A DNA stretch of 37,740 bases from a virus (taxonomy: Duplodnaviria > Heunggongvirae > Uroviricota > Caudoviricetes > Crassvirales). Numbering within the stretch: the first letter of the stretch is position 1; each line of letters begins with the position of its first letter. The notes beneath the pieces were generated by a model. The model was not told where the DNA came from. It searched no databases and worked only from the letters and a program-made list of their open reading frames with translations. Below, in pieces: positions 1,999 to 18,692 of the stretch. Location of the stretch: the IMG/VR virus record IMGVR_UViG_3300020045_007777, positions 1 to 37,740 of that record; one strand, 5' to 3'. A program made the position numbers and the translations under genes.

Positions 1999-2032
1999 TC
2001 AACTCAATAAATTACAATTAATAATTAAGATT

Positions 2033-2059
2033 AGAGAGGGGAAACCCTCTCTTTTTTTT
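2033..2059 (+). terminator. Rho-independent terminator
   Basis: AGAGAGGG-GAAA-CCCTCTCT (8-bp stem, GNRA loop) followed by a T-run, 35 nt after the SSB stop. Confidence 0.85.
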
Positions 2060-2070
2060 ATATAAATAAT

Positions 2071-2382
2071 ATGGATATATTTAAAGAAGCTTTTGATAAA
2101 GTATATTCTTTACGAGCGCGTCAAATTGCAAGAGGAAATAATAATTATAAAATTATGGAATCATTTAGAATGACAATACTTGATTTTTCATATAAACATA
2201 ATCAAGAAAGAAATGAAATACTTAAATTATTAGAACAATTAGAATATTATGATCAAAATGGTTATAATATAATGTTTACACAAGATGAACAAAATAGTAT
2301 TAATAATTTAATTGAATCAGATGATACTTATAATTTAGAATTAGCTAAACAAATTGTCCTAGAAAGATTAAATAATAATTAA
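2071..2382 (+). CDS. Hypothetical protein (103 aa)
   Basis: ORF with an A-rich leader and TAATG overlap with the next gene; C-terminal motif NNLIESDDTYNLELAKQIV. Confidence 0.7.
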   Translation: MDIFKEAFDKVYSLRARQIARGNNNYKIMESFRMTILDFSYKHNQERNEILKLLEQLEYYDQNGYNIMFTQDEQNSINNLIESDDTYNLELAKQIVLERLNNN

Positions 2383-2618
2383 TGTATAAAATAATAAAAT
2401 ATAAAAATGGTTATTATCCTATAATTGTAACATTTCAATTATTTAATATTCCTATATTTTGGTCATATTTAAAATATGATAGTATTACCAAATCTATTAT
2501 TAAATGTTCTAAAAAAGATGTCATGTATAAATATAATAAAATTTATTATGGTTTACAATTTTATAAAAATAAAATAAGATGTTTGAGAATAATTATAAAT
2601 CATAAAAATAATGTATAA
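2382..2618 (+). CDS. Hypothetical small basic protein (78 aa)
   Basis: Fills the gap between coupled genes, with stop/start overlaps on both sides. Confidence 0.55.
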   Translation: MYKIIKYKNGYYPIIVTFQLFNIPIFWSYLKYDSITKSIIKCSKKDVMYKYNKIYYGLQFYKNKIRCLRIIINHKNNV

Positions 2619-3645
2619 TTTTAAAATTAAAACATTTATAAGTGAAGATAATTTATTACAACATGTTACAGATTATGATGTATTTAGATATTATTTAGGA
2701 AATTTTACCATTGGTAAAGCATTTAATTCACCATTAAGAAATGATACACATGCATCATTTAATATTGGTTATAATGCTGTTACAAATAGATTATATTGTA
2801 ATGATTATATTCTAGGTGGTGGAAATTTTATAATGTATGTAATGTATAGATATAATTTATCATATCGTGAAGCATGTAATAAAATTGTATTAGATTTAGG
2901 TCTTGAAGATCACTTTCATTTATTTAGTGTAGATAAAGAAGTTCCGAGAGAACAAAAGAAATTTACTAAAATTAGTGCTGATGAAATTCAAAAATTTAAA
3001 AAAGAAACTCATTTAAGTGCTAAAGTTAGAGAATGGCAAGAATATGATATTGAATTTTGGAAACAATATGGTATTACACAACAAACTTTAAATTTATATA
3101 ATGTTGTACCAGTTGAATATTCAATGTTAGGTGATAAAATATTTAAGTTAGATAAACATGCTTATGCTTTTATTGAATATAAAGATGGTGAAAAAACTTT
3201 AACTATTTATCAACCTTATAGTAATACTCAAAAATGGACTAAAAATCATGATGCTTCTACTTGGTATGGTTGGACACAATTACCTGAAAAAGGTGAAAAA
3301 CTAATTATAACTAAGTCTAGAAAAGATATTATGTCTATTTATGAACTTACTGGTGTACCTGCTACAGGTTTACAAAATGAAAAAATATTACCAAAACCTC
3401 AAGTATTAGAAGAACTGAAAAAAAGATTTGATATTATATATGTATTATATGATAATGATTTTGATAAACCAGTTAATTGGGGAAGAGAATTTGGTGAAAA
3501 ATTTTCAAATGAATGTGGTTTATTTCAATTAGAAATACCAACAAAATTTGAATCAAAAGATTTTAGCGATCTTGTAAATAATCATGGACAAGATGAAGCT
3601 AAAAAAATATTATTAGAATTAATAGAAGATAAATTACCTTTTTAA
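2611..3645 (+). CDS. DNA primase, crAss-type DnaG/TOPRIM family
   Basis: N-terminal SPLRNDTHASF degenerate zinc-binding-domain motif; TOPRIM-like LIITKSRKDIM and YVLYDND..G motifs. Confidence 0.8.
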   Translation: MYNFKIKTFISEDNLLQHVTDYDVFRYYLGNFTIGKAFNSPLRNDTHASFNIGYNAVTNRLYCNDYILGGGNFIMYVMYRYNLSYREACNKIVLDLGLEDHFHLFSVDKEVPREQKKFTKISADEIQKFKKETHLSAKVREWQEYDIEFWKQYGITQQTLNLYNVVPVEYSMLGDKIFKLDKHAYAFIEYKDGEKTLTIYQPYSNTQKWTKNHDASTWYGWTQLPEKGEKLIITKSRKDIMSIYELTGVPATGLQNEKILPKPQVLEELKKRFDIIYVLYDNDFDKPVNWGREFGEKFSNECGLFQLEIPTKFESKDFSDLVNNHGQDEAKKILLELIEDKLPF

Positions 3646-3655
3646 AATAATAAAA

Positions 3656-4045
3656 ATGAATAAACAAGAAGAAAAAGAGTACTATTTCGTATATGGTACA
3701 TTAAAACGTGGATATGGTAATAATTATATCTTAAGTGAGTCATCTACAGCTAAATTTATTGAAGAAGCTGTTACAGAACCAGAATTTACTTTATATAACT
3801 TAGGACCATTTCCTGGTGTTTCAGACACTGGAGATACTGCAGTTCATGGAGAAATTTGGTCAGTTGAAGATGCATATACAAAATCAAGATTAGATCGTTT
3901 AGAAGGATATAGAAAAGATGATCCTAAAAATGGTTTATATGATAAAAAAATAATTAAAATTAAAGACAAAGAAGTAAATATATACTTAATTAACGGATAC
4001 AGAAATAATAATACTAAACTTGAATCAGGAAAATGGGAACAATAG
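3656..4045 (+). CDS. Gamma-glutamyl cyclotransferase (AIG2/YtfP-like)
   Basis: YFVYGTLKRG N-terminal loop, GPFPGV, VHGEIW and catalytic LDRLEGY. Confidence 0.9.
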   Translation: MNKQEEKEYYFVYGTLKRGYGNNYILSESSTAKFIEEAVTEPEFTLYNLGPFPGVSDTGDTAVHGEIWSVEDAYTKSRLDRLEGYRKDDPKNGLYDKKIIKIKDKEVNIYLINGYRNNNTKLESGKWEQ

Positions 4046-5031
4046 TTAAAAGAAAAAAAAGCTTAATACATGATAATTCAGTAGGAAAACATACATTAAA
4101 TGGTAGTACATTTTGTGCATTTTCAATAGTTGATCCAAAATCTACTATAAATATTTCAAATGTTGATAATGGAAATCATAATAGTTTTAGAGGTCATGGT
4201 TGTTGTACAAGTACTTCACAACAAAAATTTAATTATGAAAGTAGACCAAAAGATGGTGAATGGGTTTTTATGAAAATAAATTTTAATAATTTACCATCTT
4301 TATATAGAGATAAAAAATATCTTCAACGTTGGGTTGACTTTATTAATGAAACTTTTGAATTTGCTGAAGTTCATATTATTGGTTATAATGGAGAAGATTT
4401 AACAGATGAATCATATATTAATAAAAATATTAAATTTACATTTGAAAAAAACAATGTATATTTTGCTATAAAAAAAGCTGTTAAATTTGGTACATCTGCT
4501 AATTATCAAGATTTATTTGTATTATCTTTAGTTAGATATTTAAGTTCTTTTAATTATCAATATATGGTATATGATACATTAAGATTAAGAAAACTTAAAT
4601 CATTATCAGATTTATCTAATTGGGATATTTTAAATATTGCAAAATTTGGTGCTCAATTAAATGATACTGATAATGAATCCAGAAATTCTAATTTAGATAT
4701 GATGATGCTAAATTATTATAGATCTCCATTAGCATTAAATATATATGTTCCTGCACAAGCTTCTTTAGAAAAAGTTATTCAATTGTTAAGTAAAAATAGC
4801 ATACAAAATATAGCTTGTTCAGATAATAAATCTGTTAAATTAAATGTAATTTATTTAATGAATTTATTTCAAAAAAAACAATATAGAAAATTATTTAATT
4901 TATTTACTGATAAAAAATATTTAGTAAATGATCCTAATAATGGATATGAAAAAGTTTATAAAACACATGATATAACTTTTGAAAATTTAAATACAATATT
5001 TAATCATAAACAATATGAATCAACACTTTAA
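4033..5031 (+). CDS. Hypothetical protein (332 aa) inside the amide-ligase cluster
   Basis: Long ORF overlapping both neighbours; GHGCC motif; no family recognised. Confidence 0.8.
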   Translation: MGTIVKRKKSLIHDNSVGKHTLNGSTFCAFSIVDPKSTINISNVDNGNHNSFRGHGCCTSTSQQKFNYESRPKDGEWVFMKINFNNLPSLYRDKKYLQRWVDFINETFEFAEVHIIGYNGEDLTDESYINKNIKFTFEKNNVYFAIKKAVKFGTSANYQDLFVLSLVRYLSSFNYQYMVYDTLRLRKLKSLSDLSNWDILNIAKFGAQLNDTDNESRNSNLDMMMLNYYRSPLALNIYVPAQASLEKVIQLLSKNSIQNIACSDNKSVKLNVIYLMNLFQKKQYRKLFNLFTDKKYLVNDPNNGYEKVYKTHDITFENLNTIFNHKQYESTL

Positions 5032-5803
5032 ATTAAAAAATTTAACTATAGGTTCTGATCTTGAACTTTTTATTAAAGATTCAAAAACTGGTAAATTAGC
5101 TTCAGCTGTTGGAGTATTTGGTGGTACTAAAGAAGAACCAAGATATATTAATAATTTATGTTATATTCAAGAAGATAATATACTGGCGGAAGCAAATATC
5201 CCGCCAGTTACTACTTTTGAAGATTTCAAAAATTATATTAATTATATTAAAGGATATATTATTAATAATTATTCACAATATTCAATTCATTATAGTTCAA
5301 GTGAAAGAGCTACGCCTGATTTATTAGCTAGTGATGGAGCAAGAACTTTTGGGTGTGAGCCAGTATTAATTGTAGATTACAATGATAATGGTGATATTAT
5401 ACCAGAAGATGAATTTGAAGAATCTGTAATGCAAAAACAATTTAGTCCTATTAGAGTAGGTGGATTTCATATTCATTTTGGTTATGATGATCATACACCA
5501 GAGATTAGTAGAGAAATTGTTAAATTATTTGAAAAAAATGTTACTTTAAAATTATTAAATAAGGAATATGATCCTTATCATAGAAGAAGTTTTTATGGTA
5601 AAGCTGGTGAATATAGACTTAAACCTTATGGTTTAGAATGTAGATCATTAGGTAGTTCTTTATTAAAAGATGATGATAGTTTAAAACAAGTATGGGATGC
5701 TGTACAAGAAACTATTACACAATTTAATCAAGGAGAAAGAGTAAGTAAACAAGAATTTCAAATTATAAAAGAAATAATAAATACACATGGTAAAAAAGAT
5801 TAA
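5015..5803 (+). CDS. phiEco32-like COOH-NH2 ligase type 2 (glutamine synthetase-like fold)
   Basis: TIGSDLELF, GGTKEEP, QEDNILAEANIPP, FGCEP, RVGGFHIHFG, RRSFYGKAGEYRLKPYGLECRSL. Confidence 0.9.
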   Translation: MNQHFKLKNLTIGSDLELFIKDSKTGKLASAVGVFGGTKEEPRYINNLCYIQEDNILAEANIPPVTTFEDFKNYINYIKGYIINNYSQYSIHYSSSERATPDLLASDGARTFGCEPVLIVDYNDNGDIIPEDEFEESVMQKQFSPIRVGGFHIHFGYDDHTPEISREIVKLFEKNVTLKLLNKEYDPYHRRSFYGKAGEYRLKPYGLECRSLGSSLLKDDDSLKQVWDAVQETITQFNQGERVSKQEFQIIKEIINTHGKKD

Positions 5804-6281
5804 AACTAAAAAAAAGAAAAAACTGATTAAAAAAGAATATATTTATTACTTTGCTTATGGATCTAATATGTTACAATCTAGACTTGAAGAAAGAGTTGGA
5901 AAAGTAATTAAAGTAGGTGTAGGAACAATTCAAGATTTTAAATTATCATTTAATTATGGTAATACTGTACAATCATTTGCTAATGTAAAATATAGTGATG
6001 GAGATAATGTTCAAGGAGTTATATACAAATTAACATTAAGACAATTACAAATTTTAGATTATTATGAAGGATATGGATGTCCTGAATTTTATACAAGAAT
6101 TGTAGAAATAATTGATGATATTCCAGTTCAAGTTTATATTTCATATAATATTAGACGTGAATTTCAAAAACCTATAATGAGTACTTATTTACACTTCTTA
6201 ATACAAGGTTATAAAGAAAATAATATTAAACATGAACATAATTTAGGAATATTAAAAAAGAATATACAAGTAATAAATTAA
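5787..6281 (+). CDS. Gamma-glutamyl cyclotransferase (GGCT-like), second copy
   Basis: YYFAYGSNM, VQGVIYKL and catalytic LDYYEGY; C-terminal YLHFLIQG helix. Confidence 0.88.
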   Translation: MVKKIKTKKKKKLIKKEYIYYFAYGSNMLQSRLEERVGKVIKVGVGTIQDFKLSFNYGNTVQSFANVKYSDGDNVQGVIYKLTLRQLQILDYYEGYGCPEFYTRIVEIIDDIPVQVYISYNIRREFQKPIMSTYLHFLIQGYKENNIKHEHNLGILKKNIQVIN

Positions 6282-6292
6282 AAAAAATAAAA

Positions 6293-8182
6293 ATGGTAAA
6301 TACAATTTTAATACTAGCAATGGTAAGAATTAGTTTAAACTTATTGTTTAAACCAAAAAATAATGTCTTAGGCTGCGGATTATTTGGAGCAGTTTCTGAC
6401 GATGTTACGAGAATTAACATAGACAAATTAAAAATATTAGGTATCTATAATGATATAAGAGGTGGACATTCATGTGGAATTTCTATTGATGGAGATATTA
6501 TTGCTGGTGTAAACGATGAAAAATTATTTAAAAACTTTATAGCAGAAAATGATATAATTGCACCAAATTATTTACCTGTAGTTTTAGGACATACTAGAAT
6601 GGCTACAGGTGGTGCACATACAATAGATAATGCACATCCATTTGGATTTGGAGATAACAAAGGTTCTTATAAATTTATAGGTGCTCACAATGGAACATTA
6701 CATAATCATATAGAATTAGCTACAAAATATGATATTGATACTAATGTTAAAACAGGAATAGATAAAAATGGTAAAGATACTTTTAGAAATAAAATTGATT
6801 CTGAAGTTTTATTAGAAATTATCTATAATAAAGGATTTAAAATTCTTGAAGAATATGAAGGTGCTGCTGCACTTACAATGTATGATACTACAAAACCAGA
6901 TACATTTTATTTATATCATGGTATGTCTAAAAAAATAGCTTCTGATAAAGAAGCTGTTGAAGAAAGACCAATGTTTGTATATCAACATTCAAAAGGTTTA
7001 TTATATTATTCATCATTAGAAAATTCATTGAGAGCTATTAATGATAATGATGGAGAAATTATTGAATTAGAACATAATTATGTTTATGAAATTAAAAATG
7101 GAACATTAAAAGGTTCTAAACGATATAAAATTGATAGAAGTGAAAAACTTCAAACAAAATATTCAACGCCGACGACAACTACAACCTATTCTAACGGGAA
7201 TTATAAAAATAGTAAACATCATACTTGGAGATATGACTTTAAAGAATGGATGACAGATTATGAATATAATCAAAGATTGGGTTTAGAAAAAAGCAGAAAA
7301 GAAAGAGAAGATAAATTAATGGGTAATACTTCTTCTGCTGGAACAAACTCAACTGTTAGACAATTACCTTCTCGAACTTGGAATTTAAATAGTCTTCAAG
7401 ATCATAAAGAACATTTTGAATTATTTAAACCTGAATTATTAAAAAATGTTTATTATGAAAATTTAAGATTTTATAAAGAAAAAAAAGAATTAGATGGTAT
7501 TTATGCTGTAACTAAAACTATGGATTTATATTATTTATGTTCATTAACAACAAGTATTGATGAATATTATGAAACATCTAAAAAAGGAGCAAGTGGTGAT
7601 ACTTTATTTAAAGAACCATTATTAATGTATTTTTCTAAAGGTATTTGTTTAATTAATCAGGCTTCATATATAGAAGTAAAAGGATTTACTACAATGAGTA
7701 CTATAGATTTAAGTATTCATAGTAAATATCCTATTAAAGATGCTTTTGTTCAAACAGGATTAATATTTTTTAAAGGTTCAGTAGCTAATTTAAAATTTAA
7801 TACTTTTATTGGTTTAAATACAATTACTATTGCAAATGGTAAATGTATATCAATTGATAAAAAAGATGTTGATTTTGAAAAAAATAAAAAATTTTATTTA
7901 ACAACTGATATTTCATTTTTTGAACAATATGCTTCTGCAGTTGCTAAAAATATTAAATTAGAAGTTGCTGAAAAAAATGGAGAAAATATTAAAGAAAATA
8001 TTATTGAAGTAAAATCAAATGATGAAACAGCTGTTGAATTATATAGAGAAAATTTAATTGCAACTGCAGATTATTGTGTTGATGATACTGATGATAGTAT
8101 TGAAGATGTTGCTACATCTAATAAAGTAAAAACAAAATTAGAAAATATAAAAGAATTTATAACAAAAACTTTAAGTTTATAA
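6293..8182 (+). CDS. Class II (Ntn) glutamine amidotransferase with N-terminal leader and long unknown C-terminal region
   Basis: CGLFG (Cys28), RGGHSCG, GHTRMAT, NAHPF, AHNGTLHN, IDSEVL. The start could also be the Met at residue 10. Confidence 0.88.
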   Translation: MVNTILILAMVRISLNLLFKPKNNVLGCGLFGAVSDDVTRINIDKLKILGIYNDIRGGHSCGISIDGDIIAGVNDEKLFKNFIAENDIIAPNYLPVVLGHTRMATGGAHTIDNAHPFGFGDNKGSYKFIGAHNGTLHNHIELATKYDIDTNVKTGIDKNGKDTFRNKIDSEVLLEIIYNKGFKILEEYEGAAALTMYDTTKPDTFYLYHGMSKKIASDKEAVEERPMFVYQHSKGLLYYSSLENSLRAINDNDGEIIELEHNYVYEIKNGTLKGSKRYKIDRSEKLQTKYSTPTTTTTYSNGNYKNSKHHTWRYDFKEWMTDYEYNQRLGLEKSRKEREDKLMGNTSSAGTNSTVRQLPSRTWNLNSLQDHKEHFELFKPELLKNVYYENLRFYKEKKELDGIYAVTKTMDLYYLCSLTTSIDEYYETSKKGASGDTLFKEPLLMYFSKGICLINQASYIEVKGFTTMSTIDLSIHSKYPIKDAFVQTGLIFFKGSVANLKFNTFIGLNTITIANGKCISIDKKDVDFEKNKKFYLTTDISFFEQYASAVAKNIKLEVAEKNGENIKENIIEVKSNDETAVELYRENLIATADYCVDDTDDSIEDVATSNKVKTKLENIKEFITKTLSL

Positions 8183-8183
8183 T

Positions 8184-9893
8184 ATGAAAGTTACAACAAT
8201 AAATGGAGAGCAAGTTTTAAAAACTAATGCTCGTAAAATTAAAAAAGATGATGGTACTTTTGGGTACTATAAAATTGGTGAAACTAATGTTAAGGATTCA
8301 GGAGATTGTTATAAAATTAATAATATTTTCTATATTCTTGATAAAGGTAGAATTACATGGGATTATTCTTTAAGTTCTTATGTTCTTAAATCATCAACTT
8401 TAACAGGTGTTATTGACACAGATTTAAATGAAGGTTCTTTTGCAATTAAAGATTATAAATATCTTTATATTTGTAATGAAAAATTTAATAAAAGACTTTG
8501 TATGAATGATTCTATTGGTAAAGAATTGGGATATACTTTAGTTAATGATACTTATTATAATCCAAAAGTATTTGGTTATAAAGAATTATATCCTCGTCAA
8601 AGAATTGATAATTCATATAAAAATACATTACCATATAATTTTAGAGATTCTTTACCACAAGCAATTAAATATTATAATTCTTATAAATATCAACAAGATG
8701 AAGAATTAGATAATTTTTTAAATAAAAGTGGTATTAGAAGTCTTTTAAGTAAATATACATTTGGTGTTGAATTAGAAACTACAGCTGGAATGATTCCTGA
8801 ACATATTTGTAAAAATTTAGGAGTTAGACCAGTTAGAGATGGATCAATTACAGGATTAGAATATGTTACAATTCCATTATCAGGAGAGAAAGGTATTTAT
8901 GCTTTAAAAGAAATTGTAGAAAGTATTATTAAATATACTGATTCTGATTTTAGTTGTTCAATGCATATTCATGTTGGTGGAATTCCAAGAACTCCTGAAT
9001 TTATTACTGCAATGTATAAATTTGCTTATTATTTCCAAGATAATGTTTATAAAATGTTTCCTAGATATAAAGAAGTAAATGATGGTGTTAAAAGACAATG
9101 TTATACAGCACCATTAGATAGTATGTTAATGACAAAATTAAATTTTAAAGCTAAATCTCCAGAACAAATTAAAGAAGATTTACAAAAAATAGTTTATCAT
9201 TTGTCAGGTAAACATGAAGCTTATAAAGATTTTATTCCTTTAGAAATGATTGATACACATCCTTCAGATCCAAATCAAAGTTCTAAATGGCATATGAAAG
9301 AAAGATATAAATGGTTAAATTTAATTCCAATTATATTTACTAATAAACAAACTATTGAATATAGAACTTATACAGTTCCAGATACAGTAGAAAAAGCTAT
9401 TAGTTTTTTATTAATGAGTTTACTTATTACTGATTATGTTTCAAGATATACAACAAGAATATTATTAAATCCTGAAACAGTAAATGGTTTTGATTTTAAC
9501 TTATTATGTGATAATTTAGGAATGACTGGAACTTTAAAAAAAATGTTTTCTGAAAGATTATCTAAAGTTGCAAGTATTACTAATACTAAAGGTGCATTTT
9601 TTGAAGAAGATGATGTTGAATTACCTAAAAGAATATTTAGTAATCCTGTTATAAGAGATAAAAGTCAAAATCCTTATAAAATAAAGATGAATTCTTTTCC
9701 ATTATATGAAAATAATAGAATTTTAATTCCAATTCCTTTTAGAAATTATGCAGAAAATGATAGTGCTTATGTTGTAAGAGTTAATGCATTAGGTATTTCT
9801 AGTTCAAATTTAAAATGGGATAATAATAGAGATTTAGAATATAATGTTGCAACATTACGTATTCATAATATAAATTCAACACCTAGACCATAA
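8184..9893 (+). CDS. Putative amidoligase (Amidoligase_2-like COOH-NH2 ligase) with N-terminal extension
   Basis: TFGVELET, VRDGSI..LEYVT, SCSMHIHVG, RYKWLNL, TIEYRT. Confidence 0.85.
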   Translation: MKVTTINGEQVLKTNARKIKKDDGTFGYYKIGETNVKDSGDCYKINNIFYILDKGRITWDYSLSSYVLKSSTLTGVIDTDLNEGSFAIKDYKYLYICNEKFNKRLCMNDSIGKELGYTLVNDTYYNPKVFGYKELYPRQRIDNSYKNTLPYNFRDSLPQAIKYYNSYKYQQDEELDNFLNKSGIRSLLSKYTFGVELETTAGMIPEHICKNLGVRPVRDGSITGLEYVTIPLSGEKGIYALKEIVESIIKYTDSDFSCSMHIHVGGIPRTPEFITAMYKFAYYFQDNVYKMFPRYKEVNDGVKRQCYTAPLDSMLMTKLNFKAKSPEQIKEDLQKIVYHLSGKHEAYKDFIPLEMIDTHPSDPNQSSKWHMKERYKWLNLIPIIFTNKQTIEYRTYTVPDTVEKAISFLLMSLLITDYVSRYTTRILLNPETVNGFDFNLLCDNLGMTGTLKKMFSERLSKVASITNTKGAFFEEDDVELPKRIFSNPVIRDKSQNPYKIKMNSFPLYENNRILIPIPFRNYAENDSAYVVRVNALGISSSNLKWDNNRDLEYNVATLRIHNINSTPRP

Positions 9894-10564
9894 TGGAACA
9901 AATATTTAAAACATGGTATAAACATTTAAAACCAATTCTTGATTCTAAATATTTTATTAATTTAGTTAAACAATTAGATTCTCAATATGAATTATCTAAA
10001 TTTATGTTTAATAAAATTAAAATATATCCAACCGATAAAAAGAAAGTATTTAAATGTTTTAATTGTGATTTTAATAATTTGAAAGTAGTTTTTATTGGAA
10101 GCAAACCCTTTGATGAATTTTCAGAGGGTTTAGCTTTTGATAGTACAAATGATAAAATTAGACTTCATTCTACATCTGAATTAATTAGATATAAAATTGA
10201 AGAAGAATTTTATGATGGATTTCATTTAGGTCATGATGCAACATTAGAATATTTAATTCCACAAGGTGTATTATTATTAAATGAATCATTAACTACTACA
10301 AATCAAAAAGATCATAAAGAATTATGGTCACAATTTATACAATTTGTATTAAAGATAATTCAAGATAATAATACTGGAATTATATTTTGTATAGATAGAC
10401 AATCTGATTTAGTTAAATTAATTGATACAAAAAAACATCATTTATTAACTTTTGAAGATCCAACTAAATGTGATTATGATTTTAATTCTTGGGATTTTAA
10501 GTTTAAAGATATTAATAACATTTTAGAACATATGAATGGTTCTGAATATAAAATAAAATTTTAA
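9893..10564 (+). CDS. Family-1 uracil-DNA glycosylase-like protein, catalytic motifs degenerate
   Basis: IYP, LKVVFIG, EGLAF and QGVLLLNESLT are retained; GQDPY is replaced by GSKPF and HPSP by approximately EDPT. Confidence 0.8.
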   Translation: MEQIFKTWYKHLKPILDSKYFINLVKQLDSQYELSKFMFNKIKIYPTDKKKVFKCFNCDFNNLKVVFIGSKPFDEFSEGLAFDSTNDKIRLHSTSELIRYKIEEEFYDGFHLGHDATLEYLIPQGVLLLNESLTTTNQKDHKELWSQFIQFVLKIIQDNNTGIIFCIDRQSDLVKLIDTKKHHLLTFEDPTKCDYDFNSWDFKFKDINNILEHMNGSEYKIKF

Positions 10565-10887
10565 TGAAAGATGAATTAATAACATTTGATACAGCTAAAT
10601 TAGCTAAAGAAAAAGGTTTTAAATTTTATACTGATAGTTATTATTCTTCTATAACAGGACAAATACATACTTCTTCAACAAGTAGTTTTAATTTAGAACA
10701 TATGTTGTCAAGACCAACTCAATCATTACTTCAAAAATGGTTAAGAGAAATTCATAAAATTTTTATAAATATTAATTCAAATGAAAATGGTCATATATTA
10801 ACAGTAGGACAATTTAAAGAAGAATATAATATTTATGAAAAAGCTTTAGAAGAAGGATTACAAGAAGCATTAAAATTAATTAAATAA
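10564..10887 (+). CDS. Hypothetical protein resembling a recurrent Bacteroidota-phage family
   Basis: FDTAKLAKEKGF, PTQSLLQKWLRE and YEKALEEGLQEAL pattern, recognised from memory; TAATG-coupled on both sides. Confidence 0.7.
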   Translation: MKDELITFDTAKLAKEKGFKFYTDSYYSSITGQIHTSSTSSFNLEHMLSRPTQSLLQKWLREIHKIFININSNENGHILTVGQFKEEYNIYEKALEEGLQEALKLIK

Positions 10888-11297
10888 TGCCTAAAGAAAA
10901 AAAAGAAAAAAAAATTATTCCTAAACCACGTAATAATGGTACAATGACAGAATCAGCTTTTTGGGCTTTTATAAGAAGTTCTATTAGAAAAGCTAGTATG
11001 TATTGGAAACCATTACAACAGTGTAAAACTGATGCTAGAAGATCTTATAAAGGGTCTAATGGTCGTCAAAAATGGGAATATCAATGTGCAGAATGTAATA
11101 AATGGTTTATGGAAAAAGAAATTCAAATAGATCATATTATAGATGCAGGAAGTTTAAAATCAGGAGATGATTTAAAAGCTTTTGTAGAACGTTGTTTTGT
11201 TGAAAGTGGTGGTTATCAAGTTTTATGTAAACCTTGTCATCAAATTAAGACAAATAACGCTAGGGAAGCTAAAAAATTATTAAAAGAAAAAGAATAA
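10887..11297 (+). CDS. Zn-binding HNH endonuclease
   Basis: YQCAEC ... IQIDHII ... YQVLCKPCHQIKT. Confidence 0.8.
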   Translation: MPKEKKEKKIIPKPRNNGTMTESAFWAFIRSSIRKASMYWKPLQQCKTDARRSYKGSNGRQKWEYQCAECNKWFMEKEIQIDHIIDAGSLKSGDDLKAFVERCFVESGGYQVLCKPCHQIKTNNAREAKKLLKEKE

Positions 11298-11303
11298 AAG
11301 CCT

Positions 11304-11570
11304 ATGGAAATAATTAGAGTAAATAGTTTGGCAAAAAGTTGTATGACTGAAATAGATCATAATAAATTTATGTCAAATATTAATACCAAGAATTTAAACT
11401 CAGCGAGGTTATTTCTTGAAGATAAGATGGATGAAATTGTTTTTAGTAAAAAAATGAAATCTATCGCAGAACAACAATATAAATATACTAGATTGAAAGA
11501 ACTAGATAATATTGTTACAAATGAATATATAAACCAAATTGATGTAAATGCAGGAACTAGTATCAAATAA
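11304..11570 (+). CDS. Hypothetical protein (88 aa)
   Basis: ORF fills the gap between recognised genes on the coding strand. Confidence 0.6.
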   Translation: MEIIRVNSLAKSCMTEIDHNKFMSNINTKNLNSARLFLEDKMDEIVFSKKMKSIAEQQYKYTRLKELDNIVTNEYINQIDVNAGTSIK

Positions 11571-12558
11571 CATTAGTTACTCTTTATTAAAATCTTTTGA
11601 CGAAAATGGTCCAAGAGTATTAATAGAAAGAAAAAATGTTAAAACAAAAAGTACTGAATTTGGAAATCGTTTAGATGATTTTATAAGTTTATCAACAGAA
11701 GAATTTAATGAAAAATATCTCATAGTTCAAAATAAAATTGAAGGAGATTTATTGATATTAGCTCAAAATGTTGCTAAAAGTATTAAAATTGAATACGATG
11801 AAAATAATAAGTACAAAAAAGATACAACTGATGCAATCATAAAAATTATAAGTTATTTAGATTTATTTAAAAGGATAAAAAAAGATGAAACAAGAATATT
11901 AAAATTTAATAATAAAGAATTTTATGATTTAGTTGATCTTATAAAAAGTTATCCAAAAAAAGAATTTATTACTCCTACAGAGTATTCAAAATTAATAGAA
12001 TGTAGAAGTGCTTTATATAATCATAAATCAACAAAATCTTACTTTAATTGTGAAGGTAATATTGAAGAAATATATCAAGCAGAAATTAATTATGAATATT
12101 TAGGAAGGAATATTAAAGTTATTCTTGACAAGATAATTATAAACCACGACAAATTAACTATTCAAGGACTAGATTTAAAATCTGGAAGTCCTGCAACTCA
12201 TGAATTCATTAAGAATTTTTTTACATATAAATATTACATACAAGGTGCATTATACATTAAAGCTTTAAATCAATATATTATTGATAGAGGTTTATATGGA
12301 TATACTATTTGTCCTTTTAAATATATTTATCAACCTACATTTGATTTTAATAATCCAAAAGTGTTTGTCTTAACTAAAAAGTGGATAAGAGCAGCTTTTG
12401 ACGGATTTACAACAAATTCAGGATATAAATATAGAGGTATAGATGAGTTAATTATTGAAATTAACTGGCACATAAATAATCAAGTATTTAATGAAACTAA
12501 AGAATTTCATGAAAATAATGAGATATACCTTGATGATAGTTTTATACATGTAGAATAA
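11548..12558 (+). CDS. PD-(D/E)XK exonuclease (RecB/ExoVIII-like)
   Basis: IKVILDKII ... GLDLKSG ... YKYYIQGALY motifs. Confidence 0.8.
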   Translation: MQELVSNNISYSLLKSFDENGPRVLIERKNVKTKSTEFGNRLDDFISLSTEEFNEKYLIVQNKIEGDLLILAQNVAKSIKIEYDENNKYKKDTTDAIIKIISYLDLFKRIKKDETRILKFNNKEFYDLVDLIKSYPKKEFITPTEYSKLIECRSALYNHKSTKSYFNCEGNIEEIYQAEINYEYLGRNIKVILDKIIINHDKLTIQGLDLKSGSPATHEFIKNFFTYKYYIQGALYIKALNQYIIDRGLYGYTICPFKYIYQPTFDFNNPKVFVLTKKWIRAAFDGFTTNSGYKYRGIDELIIEINWHINNQVFNETKEFHENNEIYLDDSFIHVE

Positions 12559-12561
12559 ATA

Positions 12562-13125
12562 ATGAATAGAGTGAATATTAAAATAAGTCCAAATAAGTCA
12601 AAAACTTATTTATTACCATTGCTTTCAGATAGTTATTACTTACCTGAAAGTATTATGAAGAATTTTATAAATTGTTATATTTATGATAAAGATAATTTAC
12701 ATGATAATTGTATTTATCTTTTATTTAATTATGACATAAAAAATCCTGCTTTTACTAAATTTGAATATGAATTAAGTCAAACACCAGGATTTGAAAAACA
12801 TTATGATTTGGAAGATAACCAAATTTTATTTGTTTTAAGATTTCCAAGAGAGTTTTTAGCTGAATATTATCATTTTATAAGTGGTAAATATTCATTATAT
12901 CAAAAAGAAGCAATTGATATGATTGTTAAATATTTAATATATAATAAAGCTAATATTAATTTTATAAATAAAATTAAACAAATATTTAATAAAGATCCTA
13001 AATTAAAACTTCAACTTGAAGCTGAAATTGGGATGAAATTAGATAGTAATGCTGAATTGGGAGGAATTGCTGATATTGAAAAAGAAACTATTAATATAAA
13101 GAAATATATATCAACTTATATATGA
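12562..13125 (+). CDS. Hypothetical protein (187 aa)
   Basis: ORF with coding-like composition; NKSKTYLLPLL and GKYS motifs; function unknown. Confidence 0.7.
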   Translation: MNRVNIKISPNKSKTYLLPLLSDSYYLPESIMKNFINCYIYDKDNLHDNCIYLLFNYDIKNPAFTKFEYELSQTPGFEKHYDLEDNQILFVLRFPREFLAEYYHFISGKYSLYQKEAIDMIVKYLIYNKANINFINKIKQIFNKDPKLKLQLEAEIGMKLDSNAELGGIADIEKETINIKKYISTYI

Positions 13126-13559
13126 AATTAAAATATAAAGAATTAAGTCCTAGTGCTGTACAACCTAAGTATGGTAAAAAAGGTGATGCAGGTATGGACT
13201 TAACTGCAAGTAAAATGGTTAAAAATAGTTTATTTACTGTTTGGTATAATACAGATATTGCTGTAGAAATACCTGAAGGTCATTTTGGAATGTTAGTACC
13301 AAGAAGTTCAATATCAAATGATGGGGCATTAACTCTAGCAAATGATATTGGAATTATTGATGCAGGATATAGAGGTGGAATTCAAGTACGTTTTAATAGA
13401 ACAGTACGTGGATTTTTTTCTCGTAAAAAATATAATGTAGGTGATAGAATTGCACAACTAATAATTGTTCCATTTAAATCTGCAGAATTAGATAAACAAA
13501 TATATCTTTCTGAAACTGAAAGAGGAACTGGTGGACATGGTTCTACGGGAATTAGATAA
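13122..13559 (+). CDS. dut: Trimeric dUTPase
   Basis: All five motifs present: AGMDL, PRSSI, GIIDAGYRG, RIAQLII, RGTGGHGSTG. Confidence 0.95.
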   Translation: MKLKYKELSPSAVQPKYGKKGDAGMDLTASKMVKNSLFTVWYNTDIAVEIPEGHFGMLVPRSSISNDGALTLANDIGIIDAGYRGGIQVRFNRTVRGFFSRKKYNVGDRIAQLIIVPFKSAELDKQIYLSETERGTGGHGSTGIR

Positions 13560-13638: not shown

Positions 13639-14193
13639 ATGAATGTTAAAATTGGTTCAACAGTAGGTAATTGGTTAGTAAAATCAGATTTTTTTATAAA
13701 AGATAATATACAATATCATAATTGTGAATGTATATGTGGAATTAATAGAGATGTTAGAAGATGGCATTTAAATAATTCTAAAACAAAAGGATGTGGTTGT
13801 ACTAATATAAAAGGAAGATTTAAGTATGAAGGTGTTGGTGATTTATCAAAAGCATATTTTACTTCATTTAAATTTGGTAGAGAAAATAAAGGAAAAATAT
13901 TTTCTAATGAAATTACATTAGAATTTCTTTGGAATTTATTTTTAAAACAAAATAAAAAATGTGCATTAAGTGGAATAGATATTATATTAAATCCTCAATG
14001 GTCTGCACAAAATAATGGTAAAAAGAAACATTTGTTTCAAACTGCTTCAATTGATAGAATTGATTCAACAAAACATTATACTATTGATAATATTCAATGG
14101 GTTGATAAAGATATTAATTTTATGAAAGGAAGTTTAACAACAGATAAATTTTTAGATTTATGTAAAAAAGTAAGTAATAATGAAAGAAAATAA
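13639..14193 (+). CDS. Free-standing HNH (putative homing) endonuclease
   Basis: CECICG and KGCGC N-terminal DNA-binding motifs; CALSG; ASIDRIDSTKHYTIDNIQWV..IN.MK. Confidence 0.8.
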   Translation: MNVKIGSTVGNWLVKSDFFIKDNIQYHNCECICGINRDVRRWHLNNSKTKGCGCTNIKGRFKYEGVGDLSKAYFTSFKFGRENKGKIFSNEITLEFLWNLFLKQNKKCALSGIDIILNPQWSAQNNGKKKHLFQTASIDRIDSTKHYTIDNIQWVDKDINFMKGSLTTDKFLDLCKKVSNNERK

Positions 14194-14370: not shown

Positions 14371-15525
14371 ATGAGTGACATTGGTAGAATAGGTAAACAA
14401 TTAATGATTACGGAACCATTTTATGGTTTTTTTCTGTTAAATTTAAATAAACAATTCAGTGATAGTTTACCTACTGCTGGTGTTGGTAAACAAGGAATTA
14501 ATCAAATGTTATATGTTAATCCAGATTTTTGGGCTAAATTATCAGATAATCATAAAATTGGATTACTTAAACATGAATTATTACATATTGTTATGTTTCA
14601 TTTAACTATGAGGCATAATTATATGGATAAAAAATTATTTAATATAGCAGCTGATATTGAAATTAATCAATATATTAAAGATGAATGGTTACCTGAAGGT
14701 GCATTAACATTAACAACATATAATATTCCTTTAGAACCTAAAGCAGGTACTAATTATTATTATCAAGAATTATTAAAAAATTTAAATTCTTCAGATCCAG
14801 ATCCATTATTAAAACAAATGACTAGTTCAGGTGCAGGAGATATGCATGAAAGTTGGAAAGAATTTGATAATTTAAGTGATGCTGAAAAAAAATTAGTTCA
14901 GAATCAAGTTGATCATATTTTAAAAGAAGCAGCTACTACTATTAATAAAAGTAGAGGTACAATTCCAGGAGAATTAAAAGCTAAAATTGATGAATTATTT
15001 GCTGTTAAAGAAGCTGTTTTTAATTGGAAAGCTTATTTAAGAAGAAAAATTGGTAATTCTCAAGAAATTTATACTAAAAAATCTAGAAGAAAACCTTCAA
15101 AACGTTTTGTAGATGCTGCAGGTATAAAAGTTAAACAAAAACATCATATATTATTTGCTAAAGATACATCAGGTTCAGTTAGTAATGCTGAATTAATGGA
15201 AGCTGAAAGTGAATTACATCATATTTATAAAGCTGGAACAAGACTTACAGTAATTGAATGTGATACAAAAATAAATGATATTTATGAATATAAAGGTAAA
15301 TATAAAGATTATGTTACAGGTAGAGGTGGAACTGACTTTGATCCAGTTATAGAATATTATAATAAACATAAATCTAAATTTACAACATTAGTATTTTTTA
15401 CTGATGGTTACGCACCTATAAATGTGAAACCAAACAAGCCAATGATATGGATTATTTCATCTAATGGCAAAACAGATACGGAAGAATTTCCAGGATATAA
15501 AATTAAAATTCCAAAAACTGATTAA
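14371..15525 (+). CDS. Metallopeptidase (DUF2201-like, HExxH) fused to a VWA domain
   Basis: KHELLHI, FNIAADIEINQ, MIDAS DTSGS, GRGGTDF, FTDGY. Confidence 0.88.
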   Translation: MSDIGRIGKQLMITEPFYGFFLLNLNKQFSDSLPTAGVGKQGINQMLYVNPDFWAKLSDNHKIGLLKHELLHIVMFHLTMRHNYMDKKLFNIAADIEINQYIKDEWLPEGALTLTTYNIPLEPKAGTNYYYQELLKNLNSSDPDPLLKQMTSSGAGDMHESWKEFDNLSDAEKKLVQNQVDHILKEAATTINKSRGTIPGELKAKIDELFAVKEAVFNWKAYLRRKIGNSQEIYTKKSRRKPSKRFVDAAGIKVKQKHHILFAKDTSGSVSNAELMEAESELHHIYKAGTRLTVIECDTKINDIYEYKGKYKDYVTGRGGTDFDPVIEYYNKHKSKFTTLVFFTDGYAPINVKPNKPMIWIISSNGKTDTEEFPGYKIKIPKTD

Positions 15526-18128: not shown

Positions 18129-18692
18129 TTAGTAAATATTTGATTTTTTTAAATTATCTTTTGCCCATAACGGTTGTAAATTAGTATAATGACATAATTT
18201 AATTATTTCTTCTTCATTTTTTCCAGAAGATAAAGGTATAATATGATCAATATGCCAACCATATAATCCATGATTTTCCCATGTCATTCCTTTTAAAAAT
18301 TTAGATTCTAAATAAATTTTTACATTAAATACTTCTTCTCCTAGTATATCTTTAATTAAACTTTTTCTATTTTTATTAGTTTTTAAAAAACAAGCAGTTC
18401 TTTTTCTTAAAGTACATCTTAATTTAAAAATAATATCATTATCAAGTTTTTTACGAATATATTGAGATTGATATTTAATTCTTTCTATTTTATTATTTTT
18501 ATAATATTCATTTGCTTTTTTAAGCATTAATTCTTTATTATTTTTATATTTATTAGAAAGTTTTTCAGCATCATATTTATAATATTCTTTTTTACAAAGT
18601 TTACATTTATTTTGATAACCATCATTTTGAGTTTTATCTTTATGATATTCAGAAAAATCTTTAATAATTTTACATTTACAACATATTTTCAT
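18129..18692 (-). CDS. HNH endonuclease (putative homing endonuclease)
   Basis: CCKC and CKLC Zn motifs; WHIDHIIPLS ... CHYTNLQPLWAKDNLKKSN; TAATG-coupled to the 1382-aa gene. Confidence 0.85.
   Translation of the reverse strand: MKICCKCKIIKDFSEYHKDKTQNDGYQNKCKLCKKEYYKYDAEKLSNKYKNNKELMLKKANEYYKNNKIERIKYQSQYIRKKLDNDIIFKLRCTLRKRTACFLKTNKNRKSLIKDILGEEVFNVKIYLESKFLKGMTWENHGLYGWHIDHIIPLSSGKNEEEIIKLCHYTNLQPLWAKDNLKKSNIY

Follow-up and report, generated by a model that had tools for sequence, protein, structure and literature searches.

What might a bacteriophage build with a string of enzymes that form and break amide bonds, and how is such a string organised when it lies among the replication genes of a crAss-like phage? 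The question is raised by a viral DNA stretch of 37,740 nucleotides and 24% G+C (hereafter the window, which denotes the whole stretch analysed), corresponding to positions 1-37740 of the 101,740-bp crAss-like phage record IMGVR_UViG_3300020045_007777. Six + strand open reading frames (ORFs) span exactly 3656-9893 of this window, bounded by a primase gene and a UDG-like gene. In order, they encode a GGACT/YtfP-type cyclotransferase (GGCT1), a protein without a family match (ORF2), a COOH-NH2 ligase type 2, a human-GGCT-type cyclotransferase (GGCT2), a class II glutamine amidotransferase (GATase) and an Amidoligase_2 enzyme. We consider it likely that these genes form a phiEco32-type amidoligase cassette in a phage of the Crassvirales, transcribed together with the replication genes and working as the chemistry of its enzyme families would predict. 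The cassette is of a known kind, and what is newly seen here is a variant architecture and the ORF2 family.

An amide-bond enzyme cassette was reportedly predicted for phiEco32 by Iyer, Abhiman, Burroughs and Aravind in 2009. The phage studied here shares with the phiEco32-type cassettes the COOH-NH2 ligase type 2, the Amidoligase_2, the class II GATase, an AIG2/GGCT-like cyclotransferase and a RimK-like ATP-grasp ligase, together with a location among replication genes next to the primase. It differs from them by an ATP-grasp gene lying about 12 kb away from the block, by the additional human-GGCT-type cyclotransferase and by the ORF2 family. The Kuravirus cassette, which also adjoins primase/helicase genes, carries other accessory ORFs of unknown nature that bear no similarity to ORF2. 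An initial annotation of this DNA, which recognised six contiguous genes, overlapping or nearly abutting, between the primase and the UDG-like gene, proves exact in its coordinates; all six run in one direction. It was also right in the gene identities, now backed by Pfam or PHROG matches for five enzymes, in placing them in a crAss-like replication module and in relating them to the phiEco32-type clusters. Its verdict that the product of the cassette is unknown still holds.

Two phages of the Steigviridae (Crassvirales) carry annotated cassettes between the same flanking genes. In the Cellulophaga phage phi14:2 (g037-g041) the annotated order is primase, GGCT, RimK-like ATP-grasp, COOH-NH2 ligase, aminotransferase, amidoligase and UDG, and the window proteins share 33-44% identity with those of this phage. 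In the gut phage cr108_1 (gp_22632-gp_22626) a block with this set of genes occupies the identical primase-UDG position and has a Peptidase_C26-type class I amidotransferase in addition. In both phages GGCT comes before COOH-NH2 ligase, GATase and amidoligase, which follow one another as in the window. Both phages have the ATP-grasp gene inside the block and, unlike the window, neither possesses ORF2 or a second cyclotransferase.

These genes stay linked in unrelated phages. A search with a single amidoligase sequence returned one viral contig, and a profile of 28 amidoligases returned 50; ORFs were called between primase and UDG in these 50 contigs, phi14:2, cr108_1, crAss001 and the window, and clustered by BLASTP. 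The usual arrangement, seen in about 44 crAss-like loci, starts with primase, GGCT and ATP-grasp, continues with Peptidase_C26 genes in one to three copies and ends with COOH-NH2 ligase, GATase, amidoligase and the UDG-like gene. The ligase-GATase-amidoligase order is fixed throughout the crAss-like loci, and the GATase gene stands directly before the amidoligase gene in 54 of 54 loci, even in contigs from outside the crAss-like group, where the remaining genes are shuffled. In 46 loci the cassette follows a primase. The genes could have proved scattered among relatives; they keep together instead, and their linkage is far beyond chance. All six cassette genes recur in unchanged order in at least one relative (L067). 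A peptide deformylase gene lies in that contig (L067:3369-3890) between the primase and the first cyclotransferase.

The enzymes themselves keep the conserved catalytic residues in all five recognisable cases, in agreement with the earlier view that the catalytic motifs looked intact. Of the 44 positions that at least 85% of 52 homologues conserve, the COOH-NH2 ligase (PF14395, 31.6 bits against a cut-off of 25) retains 39, among them D15, E17, E59, N61, R147, H152, R190, R201, K203, E208 and R210. Its homologues amount to 305 cultured-phage records, mostly from Pseudomonas and Escherichia podophages, and are found among Kuravirus, LUZ24-like Pseudomonas phages and phages of Vibrio, Aeromonas and Proteus. 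In the Amidoligase_2 enzyme (PF12224, 23.6 bits against a cut-off of 22) a conserved N-domain (1-160) precedes the catalytic core (185-480), and the tail is variable; G194, E196, E198, D219, S221, E226, H261, R374, Y375, N379, E392 and R394 do not vary among 28 homologues. In the GATase (PF13522, 46.1 bits), the Cys1 of the PurF and GlmS structures aligns to residue 28, and C28, G29, R56, G57, H100, H115-P116-F117, H132-N133-G134 and D169-S170 show no variation across 32 sequences.

Clusters of this type usually include an ATP-grasp ligase, and the initial annotation saw none. This is correct for the window, since neither 3656-9893 nor the rest of the 37,740 nucleotides contains such a gene and the ligase is not contiguous with the cassette; it is incorrect for the phage. 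A RimK-like ATP-grasp ORF of 319 aa lies outside the window at positions 93301-94260 of the record (L059:7302-8261), upstream of the cassette across the record ends, amid helicase, ThyX and ribonucleotide reductase (RNR) genes and adjoining a NUMOD4/HNH endonuclease gene. It scores 23.8 bits with PF08443 (cut-off 21) and matches a profile of 46 in-cassette ATP-grasp genes with an hmmsearch E of 6e-17 and an hhalign probability of 99.4%. The protein is 61% identical to its equivalent in L056 and 79-84% identical in the relatives G001 and G002, where it is more conserved than the cassette genes; the relocation is common to G001, G002, L056 and L064. At the level of the genome, the same phage therefore encodes the RimK-like ATP-grasp ligase together with the other enzymes of the cassette.

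How would these enzymes work together? From the chemistry of their families, we infer the reactions, the hand-over of ammonia and the nature of the product. Each of the three ligases (COOH-NH2 ligase type 2, Amidoligase_2 and the RimK-like ATP-grasp enzyme) would use ATP to turn a carboxylate into an acyl-phosphate and couple it to an amine. The GATase probably supplies the amidoligase with ammonia, so that, as with MurT/GatD, one carboxylate would become a carboxamide; the invariant pairing of the two genes makes it most likely that the glutaminase feeds the amidoligase and is the strongest mechanistic clue available. Up to three amide bonds could thus be formed by ATP-driven steps, one of them a glutamine-fed amidation. 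The GGACT-type and GGCT-type cyclotransferases would release gamma-linked glutamyl groups as 5-oxoproline, freeing the amine. The net outcome would be a short gamma-glutamyl-type peptide or conjugate that is built, amidated and trimmed on a substrate. The protect-modify-deprotect scheme proposed at the outset fits these enzyme families.

Two characterised systems offer partial parallels. MurT/GatD catalyses the glutamine-dependent amidation of the glutamate of the peptidoglycan stem peptide, MurT being a Mur ligase and GatD a class I amidotransferase. The likeness, an ATP-dependent ligase and a glutaminase encoded side by side and turning a carboxylate into a carboxamide, is one of analogy only, as the phage cassette has a glutamine-synthetase-fold ligase and a class II N-terminal nucleophile (Ntn) amidotransferase instead. 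In butirosin synthesis, on which the initial annotation drew for its idea of protection and deprotection, the ATP-grasp enzyme BtrJ adds a gamma-glutamyl protecting group that the GGCT-like BtrG removes. An ATP-grasp ligase and a GGCT-fold cyclotransferase thus meet in one pathway there as well, which amounts to shared folds only; the acyl carrier protein, acyltransferase and aminoglycoside genes of that pathway are absent here.

The GATase has features of its own. By its conservation profile, the catalytic domain covers residues 28-285 and is followed by a linker of low conservation (286-375), a beta-rich C-domain that is conserved (376-520) and a helical-hairpin tail. The model of the C-domain reaches a predicted local distance difference test (pLDDT) score of 84.5; Foldseek against the PDB and a Pfam search with 33 C-domains returned nothing for it, and matches to the terminal helical hairpin (Z up to 7.5) fill the VIA-align list, which left the beta-rich part barely probed. 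The catalytic cysteine is residue 28 and is preceded by MVNTILILAMVRISLNLLFKPKNNVLG, with no start codon immediately before it. A like hydrophobic leader is present in the phi14:2 enzyme, and leaders of 24-48 aa occur in 28 of 51 homologues (median best 15-residue hydropathy 2.7, followed by K/R and the cysteine), the other 23 being leaderless and beginning with MCG. Ntn chemistry requires a free amino group on the cysteine, and the leader should therefore be removed; presumably it is a propeptide, cleaved off ahead of Cys28. Propeptide-bearing PurF is a precedent for such removal; to our knowledge, a hydrophobic propeptide has not been described for any Ntn amidotransferase.

The leader bears on the first candidate for the substrate, the cell envelope. 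The cassette would edit peptidoglycan stem peptides or lipid-linked precursors, which contain gamma-linked D-Glu, and so alter the surface of the infected cell, for instance for superinfection exclusion or lysis control. The membrane-helix-like leader with its basic residues in 28 of 51 GATases would bring the precursor to the inner membrane face, the site of lipid II synthesis, and MurT/GatD sets a precedent for a glutamine-fed amide ligase acting on stem-peptide glutamate. Editing of the envelope is also the hypothesis that stands in published work (PMC5498523, PMC10580990), in two papers that both cite Iyer 2009 and Hardies 2013. The one from 2017 speaks of a 'peptidoglycan modification cassette' of RIO-1-like, LUZ24-like and Kuravirus podophages and gives a block of superinfection as its supposed role (PMC5498523); as of 2023 its functions were still to be explored (PMC10580990). 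However, no Mur ligase, transpeptidase, flippase or export component is linked to the cassette, its proteins look cytoplasmic save for a leader that has to come off for the Ntn mechanism to work, and 23 of 51 GATase homologues do without one. We place the cell envelope first among the possible substrates, as a tentative choice.

The two cyclotransferases initially annotated are both borne out, but they are not duplicates of each other: one is YtfP/GGACT-like and the other resembles human GGCT. GGCT1, whose gene is found in 48 of the 54 loci, carries the motifs YGTL (residues 13-16), GEIW (E66) and LDRLEGY (E83), and its nearest solved structures are E. coli YtfP (1xhs, 1.4e-5) and B. subtilis YkqA. 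GGCT2 carries the motif YFAYGSNM, its residues 17-151 match human GGCT (2pn7) at 2.2e-10, and the glutamate of its LDYYEGY aligns with that of the human LDEQEG. It stands at the equal position in L067 and in the relative P0132, where it is 82% identical, and its subtype is also found in one C26-type cassette. The characterised mammalian member of the GGACT type acts on gamma-glutamyl-epsilon-lysine.

That activity suggests a second candidate, the amines of proteins. The glutamine-synthetase-fold ligases would attach a glutamyl or short peptide tag through its gamma-carboxyl to lysines of host or phage proteins, in the way of PafA (the Pup ligase) or RimK, and the GGACT-type GGCT1 would erase the gamma-glutamyl-epsilon-lysine bond. 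The ATP-grasp ligase is itself RimK-like. A further hint comes from crAss001 (L053), a Bacteroides phage in which the primase-to-UDG slot (8005-13227) holds five other genes, including one for a ThiF-family (E1-like) enzyme at 8e-16 and a weak Prok-JAB match at 5e-4, which falls short of the Pfam cut-off. Alternative carboxylate-activating systems seem to be exchanged for one another at this slot, and a ThiF and JAB pair, typical of ubiquitin-like conjugation, hints that these could be interchangeable tagging systems. Yet the crAss001 parallel is that of one genome, and ThiF/JAB pairs also occur in sulphur-carrier and cofactor pathways; furthermore, no tag-like small protein was identified, and ORF2 was not linked to a tag or a target. 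Tagging of proteins comes second in our ranking, and we regard it as rather unlikely.

The relatives of the window draw attention to small molecules. Peptidase_C26 genes, of the gamma-glutamyl hydrolase family, are found in one to three copies in 44 loci (Pfam 1e-16 to 4e-29), which reinforces the case for gamma-glutamyl chemistry. PuuA, a glutamine-synthetase-like enzyme, ligates a gamma-glutamyl group to putrescine, PuuD is a Peptidase_C26 member, and CofF and MptN are RimK-family ligases that add glutamate to cofactors. On these precedents, the cassette could gamma-glutamylate and amidate a free amine, such as a polyamine, or a cofactor tail, as in folate- or F420-like polyglutamates, and thereby adjust a metabolite pool for DNA replication and packaging. 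Its position amid nucleotide-metabolism genes, including ThyX, RNR and dUTPase, agrees with such a role. No Peptidase_C26 gene was found in the whole genome of the window phage, though, no polyamine or folate enzyme is linked to the cassette, and three ligases with an amidotransferase seem excessive for a single conjugation. We give this explanation slightly less credit than tagging of proteins.

The last candidate is the phage DNA or its nucleotides. In a hypermodification of DNA or nucleotides, the ligases would decorate a base of the phage DNA or its precursor against host nucleases, and in some viral contigs amidoligase and amidotransferase genes do lie beside thymidine-hypermodification genes (Lee et al., PMC8989533). 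The cassette lies among replication genes, and the UDG-fold protein next to it has motifs that are degenerate in the window (GSKPF and DPTK, without the Asp of GQDPY and the His of HP(S/A)), as they are in most cassette-bearing loci (motif table of 32 homologues). The motifs (GQDPY/HP) are nevertheless intact in cr108_1, L026 and L030, which have the cassette, and in crAss001, which has none. The state of the UDG motifs thus does not go with the presence of the cassette and gives no support to a role in DNA modification; a dead UDG as a sign of modified DNA was considered and rejected on this ground. The primase and UDG genes of crAss001 flank a different insert, so that amidoligase and UDG are neighbours by virtue of the slot, which is no mark of joint function, and, as far as the analysis shows, the UDG-like protein finds no support as a member of the pathway. 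No base-hydroxymethylating or kinase/pyrophosphorylase gene was seen beside the cassette in 54 loci, no recurrent family of these loci is annotated as a 5-hydroxymethyl-dU source, a 5-HMUDK kinase or an aGPT-Pplase, the linked parts of thymidine-hypermodification clusters (no search by these names was made), and the genome has ordinary ThyX and dUTPase genes. Nothing was found in favour of the nucleotide or DNA modification that the initial annotation had listed among its options; we rank it last and deem it improbable, the remaining probability over all four substrates being left open.

ORF2, listed as unknown in the initial annotation, is no filler and proves to belong to a conserved, cassette-specific family. 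It has no Pfam, PHROG or PDB sequence match, and an exhaustive profile search found the family to be rare, with 24 clusters (50% identity) among 1.8 billion proteins. Only C57, C58, L161, R168, Y175 and N259 are invariant in an alignment of 26 sequences, and the protein has a basic RLRKLKSL helix. Every context examined (the window, L002-L004, L055, L056, L063-L066 and L067) places ORF2 inside the cassette and directly upstream of the COOH-NH2 ligase, and none of these contexts contains a Peptidase_C26 gene. ORF2 occupies a spot held elsewhere by ATP-grasp or Peptidase_C26 genes and, in this clade, takes the position just upstream of the COOH-NH2 ligase that Peptidase_C26 holds in most relatives.

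Structural comparisons yielded few clues to this family. The AF2 model of ORF2 (pLDDT 61) has a confident alpha/beta core (70-210), and the Cys-Cys pair falls in a low-confidence segment before it. Foldseek against the PDB returned nothing at E 0.001 or better, and a wide VIA-align search peaked at a Z of 5.6, with small alpha/beta sandwiches, a value that carries no meaning. With hhalign, nothing significant emerged against the recurrent cassette families and the unknown cassette ORFs of cr108_1 and Kuravirus, the best match being gp_22630 of cr108_1 (E 0.02, probability 2.3%); BLASTP against g038 of phi14:2 gave an E of 0.49.

A disguised ATP-grasp enzyme was considered and is unlikely. The two genes are adjacent in L055, L065 and L066, and in the 292-aa subfamily of ORF2 the ATP-grasp gene comes immediately before it; lying side by side with an ATP-grasp gene, ORF2 is unlikely to be a replacement copy. 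Its alignment with the 46 cassette ATP-grasp sequences has an hhalign probability of 0.3%, and no ATP-grasp protein appears among the top fold matches of the model. A bolder explanation would join ORF2 to the slot: ORF2 would be a cysteine-dependent part of the cassette, either a Cys-Cys carrier of the growing gamma-glutamyl product or a thiol hydrolase or transferase replacing Peptidase_C26, and the primase-to-UDG slot would receive one tagging system or another, the amidoligase cassette in this phage and ThiF/JAB in crAss001, which would point to a pupylation-like tagging of protein amines. Taken as a whole, we find this combination doubtful, and more so than either protein tagging or the small-molecule explanation on its own.

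Several points weigh against our overall interpretation of the locus as a working phiEco32-type cassette. For every member, the reaction is assigned purely from the chemistry of its family. The GATase would work as an Ntn enzyme only if its 27-residue leader is cleaved. The relocated ATP-grasp ligase might serve another purpose although it matches the cassette profile. Finally, no known fold was found for ORF2, the GATase C-domain or the amidoligase N-domain, which bears on the recognition of the substrate.

The layout of the locus agrees with a common expression of the cassette and the replication genes (Table 1). The junctions between the six ORFs are, in order, -13, -17, -17, +11 and +1 nt, and the start of the UDG-like gene overlaps the amidoligase stop codon by 1 nt. 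Upstream of the primase and cassette gene string, a perfect, bidirectional and GC-rich hairpin at 2033-2054 is bordered by T-runs on both sides. Six terminator-like sites were counted in 2000-11500 against 0.7 expected, and none was found on the + strand inside 3656-9893. The tight packing of the genes and the absence of a + strand terminator make the cassette look co-transcribed with the primase. A promoter scan returned 85 sites against 90 expected, which is uninformative in DNA of 24% G+C.

Table 1. Position of the cassette genes and their borders in the window
Feature	Position	Strand	Basis and remarks
DNA primase	2611..3645	+	phrog_12622 at 2e-56; upstream border of the cassette slot in Crassvirales
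GGCT1, GGACT/YtfP-type cyclotransferase, 129 aa	3656..4045	+	PF06094 at 1e-18; phrog_2520 at 5.6e-24
ORF2, 332 aa, no family match	4033..5031	+	overlaps the COOH-NH2 ligase gene, directly upstream of it
COOH-NH2 ligase type 2 (GCS2/glutamine-synthetase-fold carboxylate-amine ligase), 262 aa	5015..5803	+	PF14395 at 1.2e-7; phrog_3815 at 2.5e-46
GGCT2, human GGCT (C7orf24)-type cyclotransferase, 164 aa	5787..6281	+	PF06094 at 1e-9; PF13772 at 0.004
GATase hydrophobic leader, 27 residues, before Cys28	6293..6373	+	read directly from the sequence
Class II (Ntn) glutamine amidotransferase (GATase)	6374..8182 after the leader; whole ORF 6293-8182, 629 aa	+	PF13522 at 6e-12
Amidoligase_2, glutamine-synthetase-fold amide ligase, 569 aa	8184..9893	+	PF12224 at 5.6e-5; phrog_2443 at 5.7e-30
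UDG-like protein	9893..10564	+	PF03167 at 0.039 (weak); phrog_12143 at 9e-25; downstream border of the slot

Around the cassette, replication genes occupy the + strand of the window from position 1 as far as about 18 kb, encoding a Sak4-like annealing protein, the primase, an exonuclease, a dUTPase, an ATPase and several HNH endonucleases. Five HNH or endonuclease VII-like genes are found in this module (190-483, 10887-11297, 13639-14193, 14371-15525 and 18129-18692), an unusually high density of homing-type nucleases. At the other end of the record, an RNR large-subunit gene (record 100703-101740; L059:14704-15741) runs past the record end, which indicates that the record was cut within a gene; the start of the window may be the continuation of this truncated gene.

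Seventeen years after its prediction, the cassette remains among the most widespread phage enzyme sets without a known product, and the copy found in the window does not solve this. It does offer facts to work with. The fixed three-gene core of ligase, glutaminase and ligase is the minimal set to express, and the Cellulophaga phage phi14:2 is a cultivable relative carrying the block. Cleavage of the GATase leader can be checked by mass, and the Cys-Cys pair of ORF2 is a clean mutational target in a rare, cassette-only protein. If the parallel with crAss001 is true, the favoured hypothesis on the role of these enzymes would shift from the editing of the cell wall towards the tagging of proteins.

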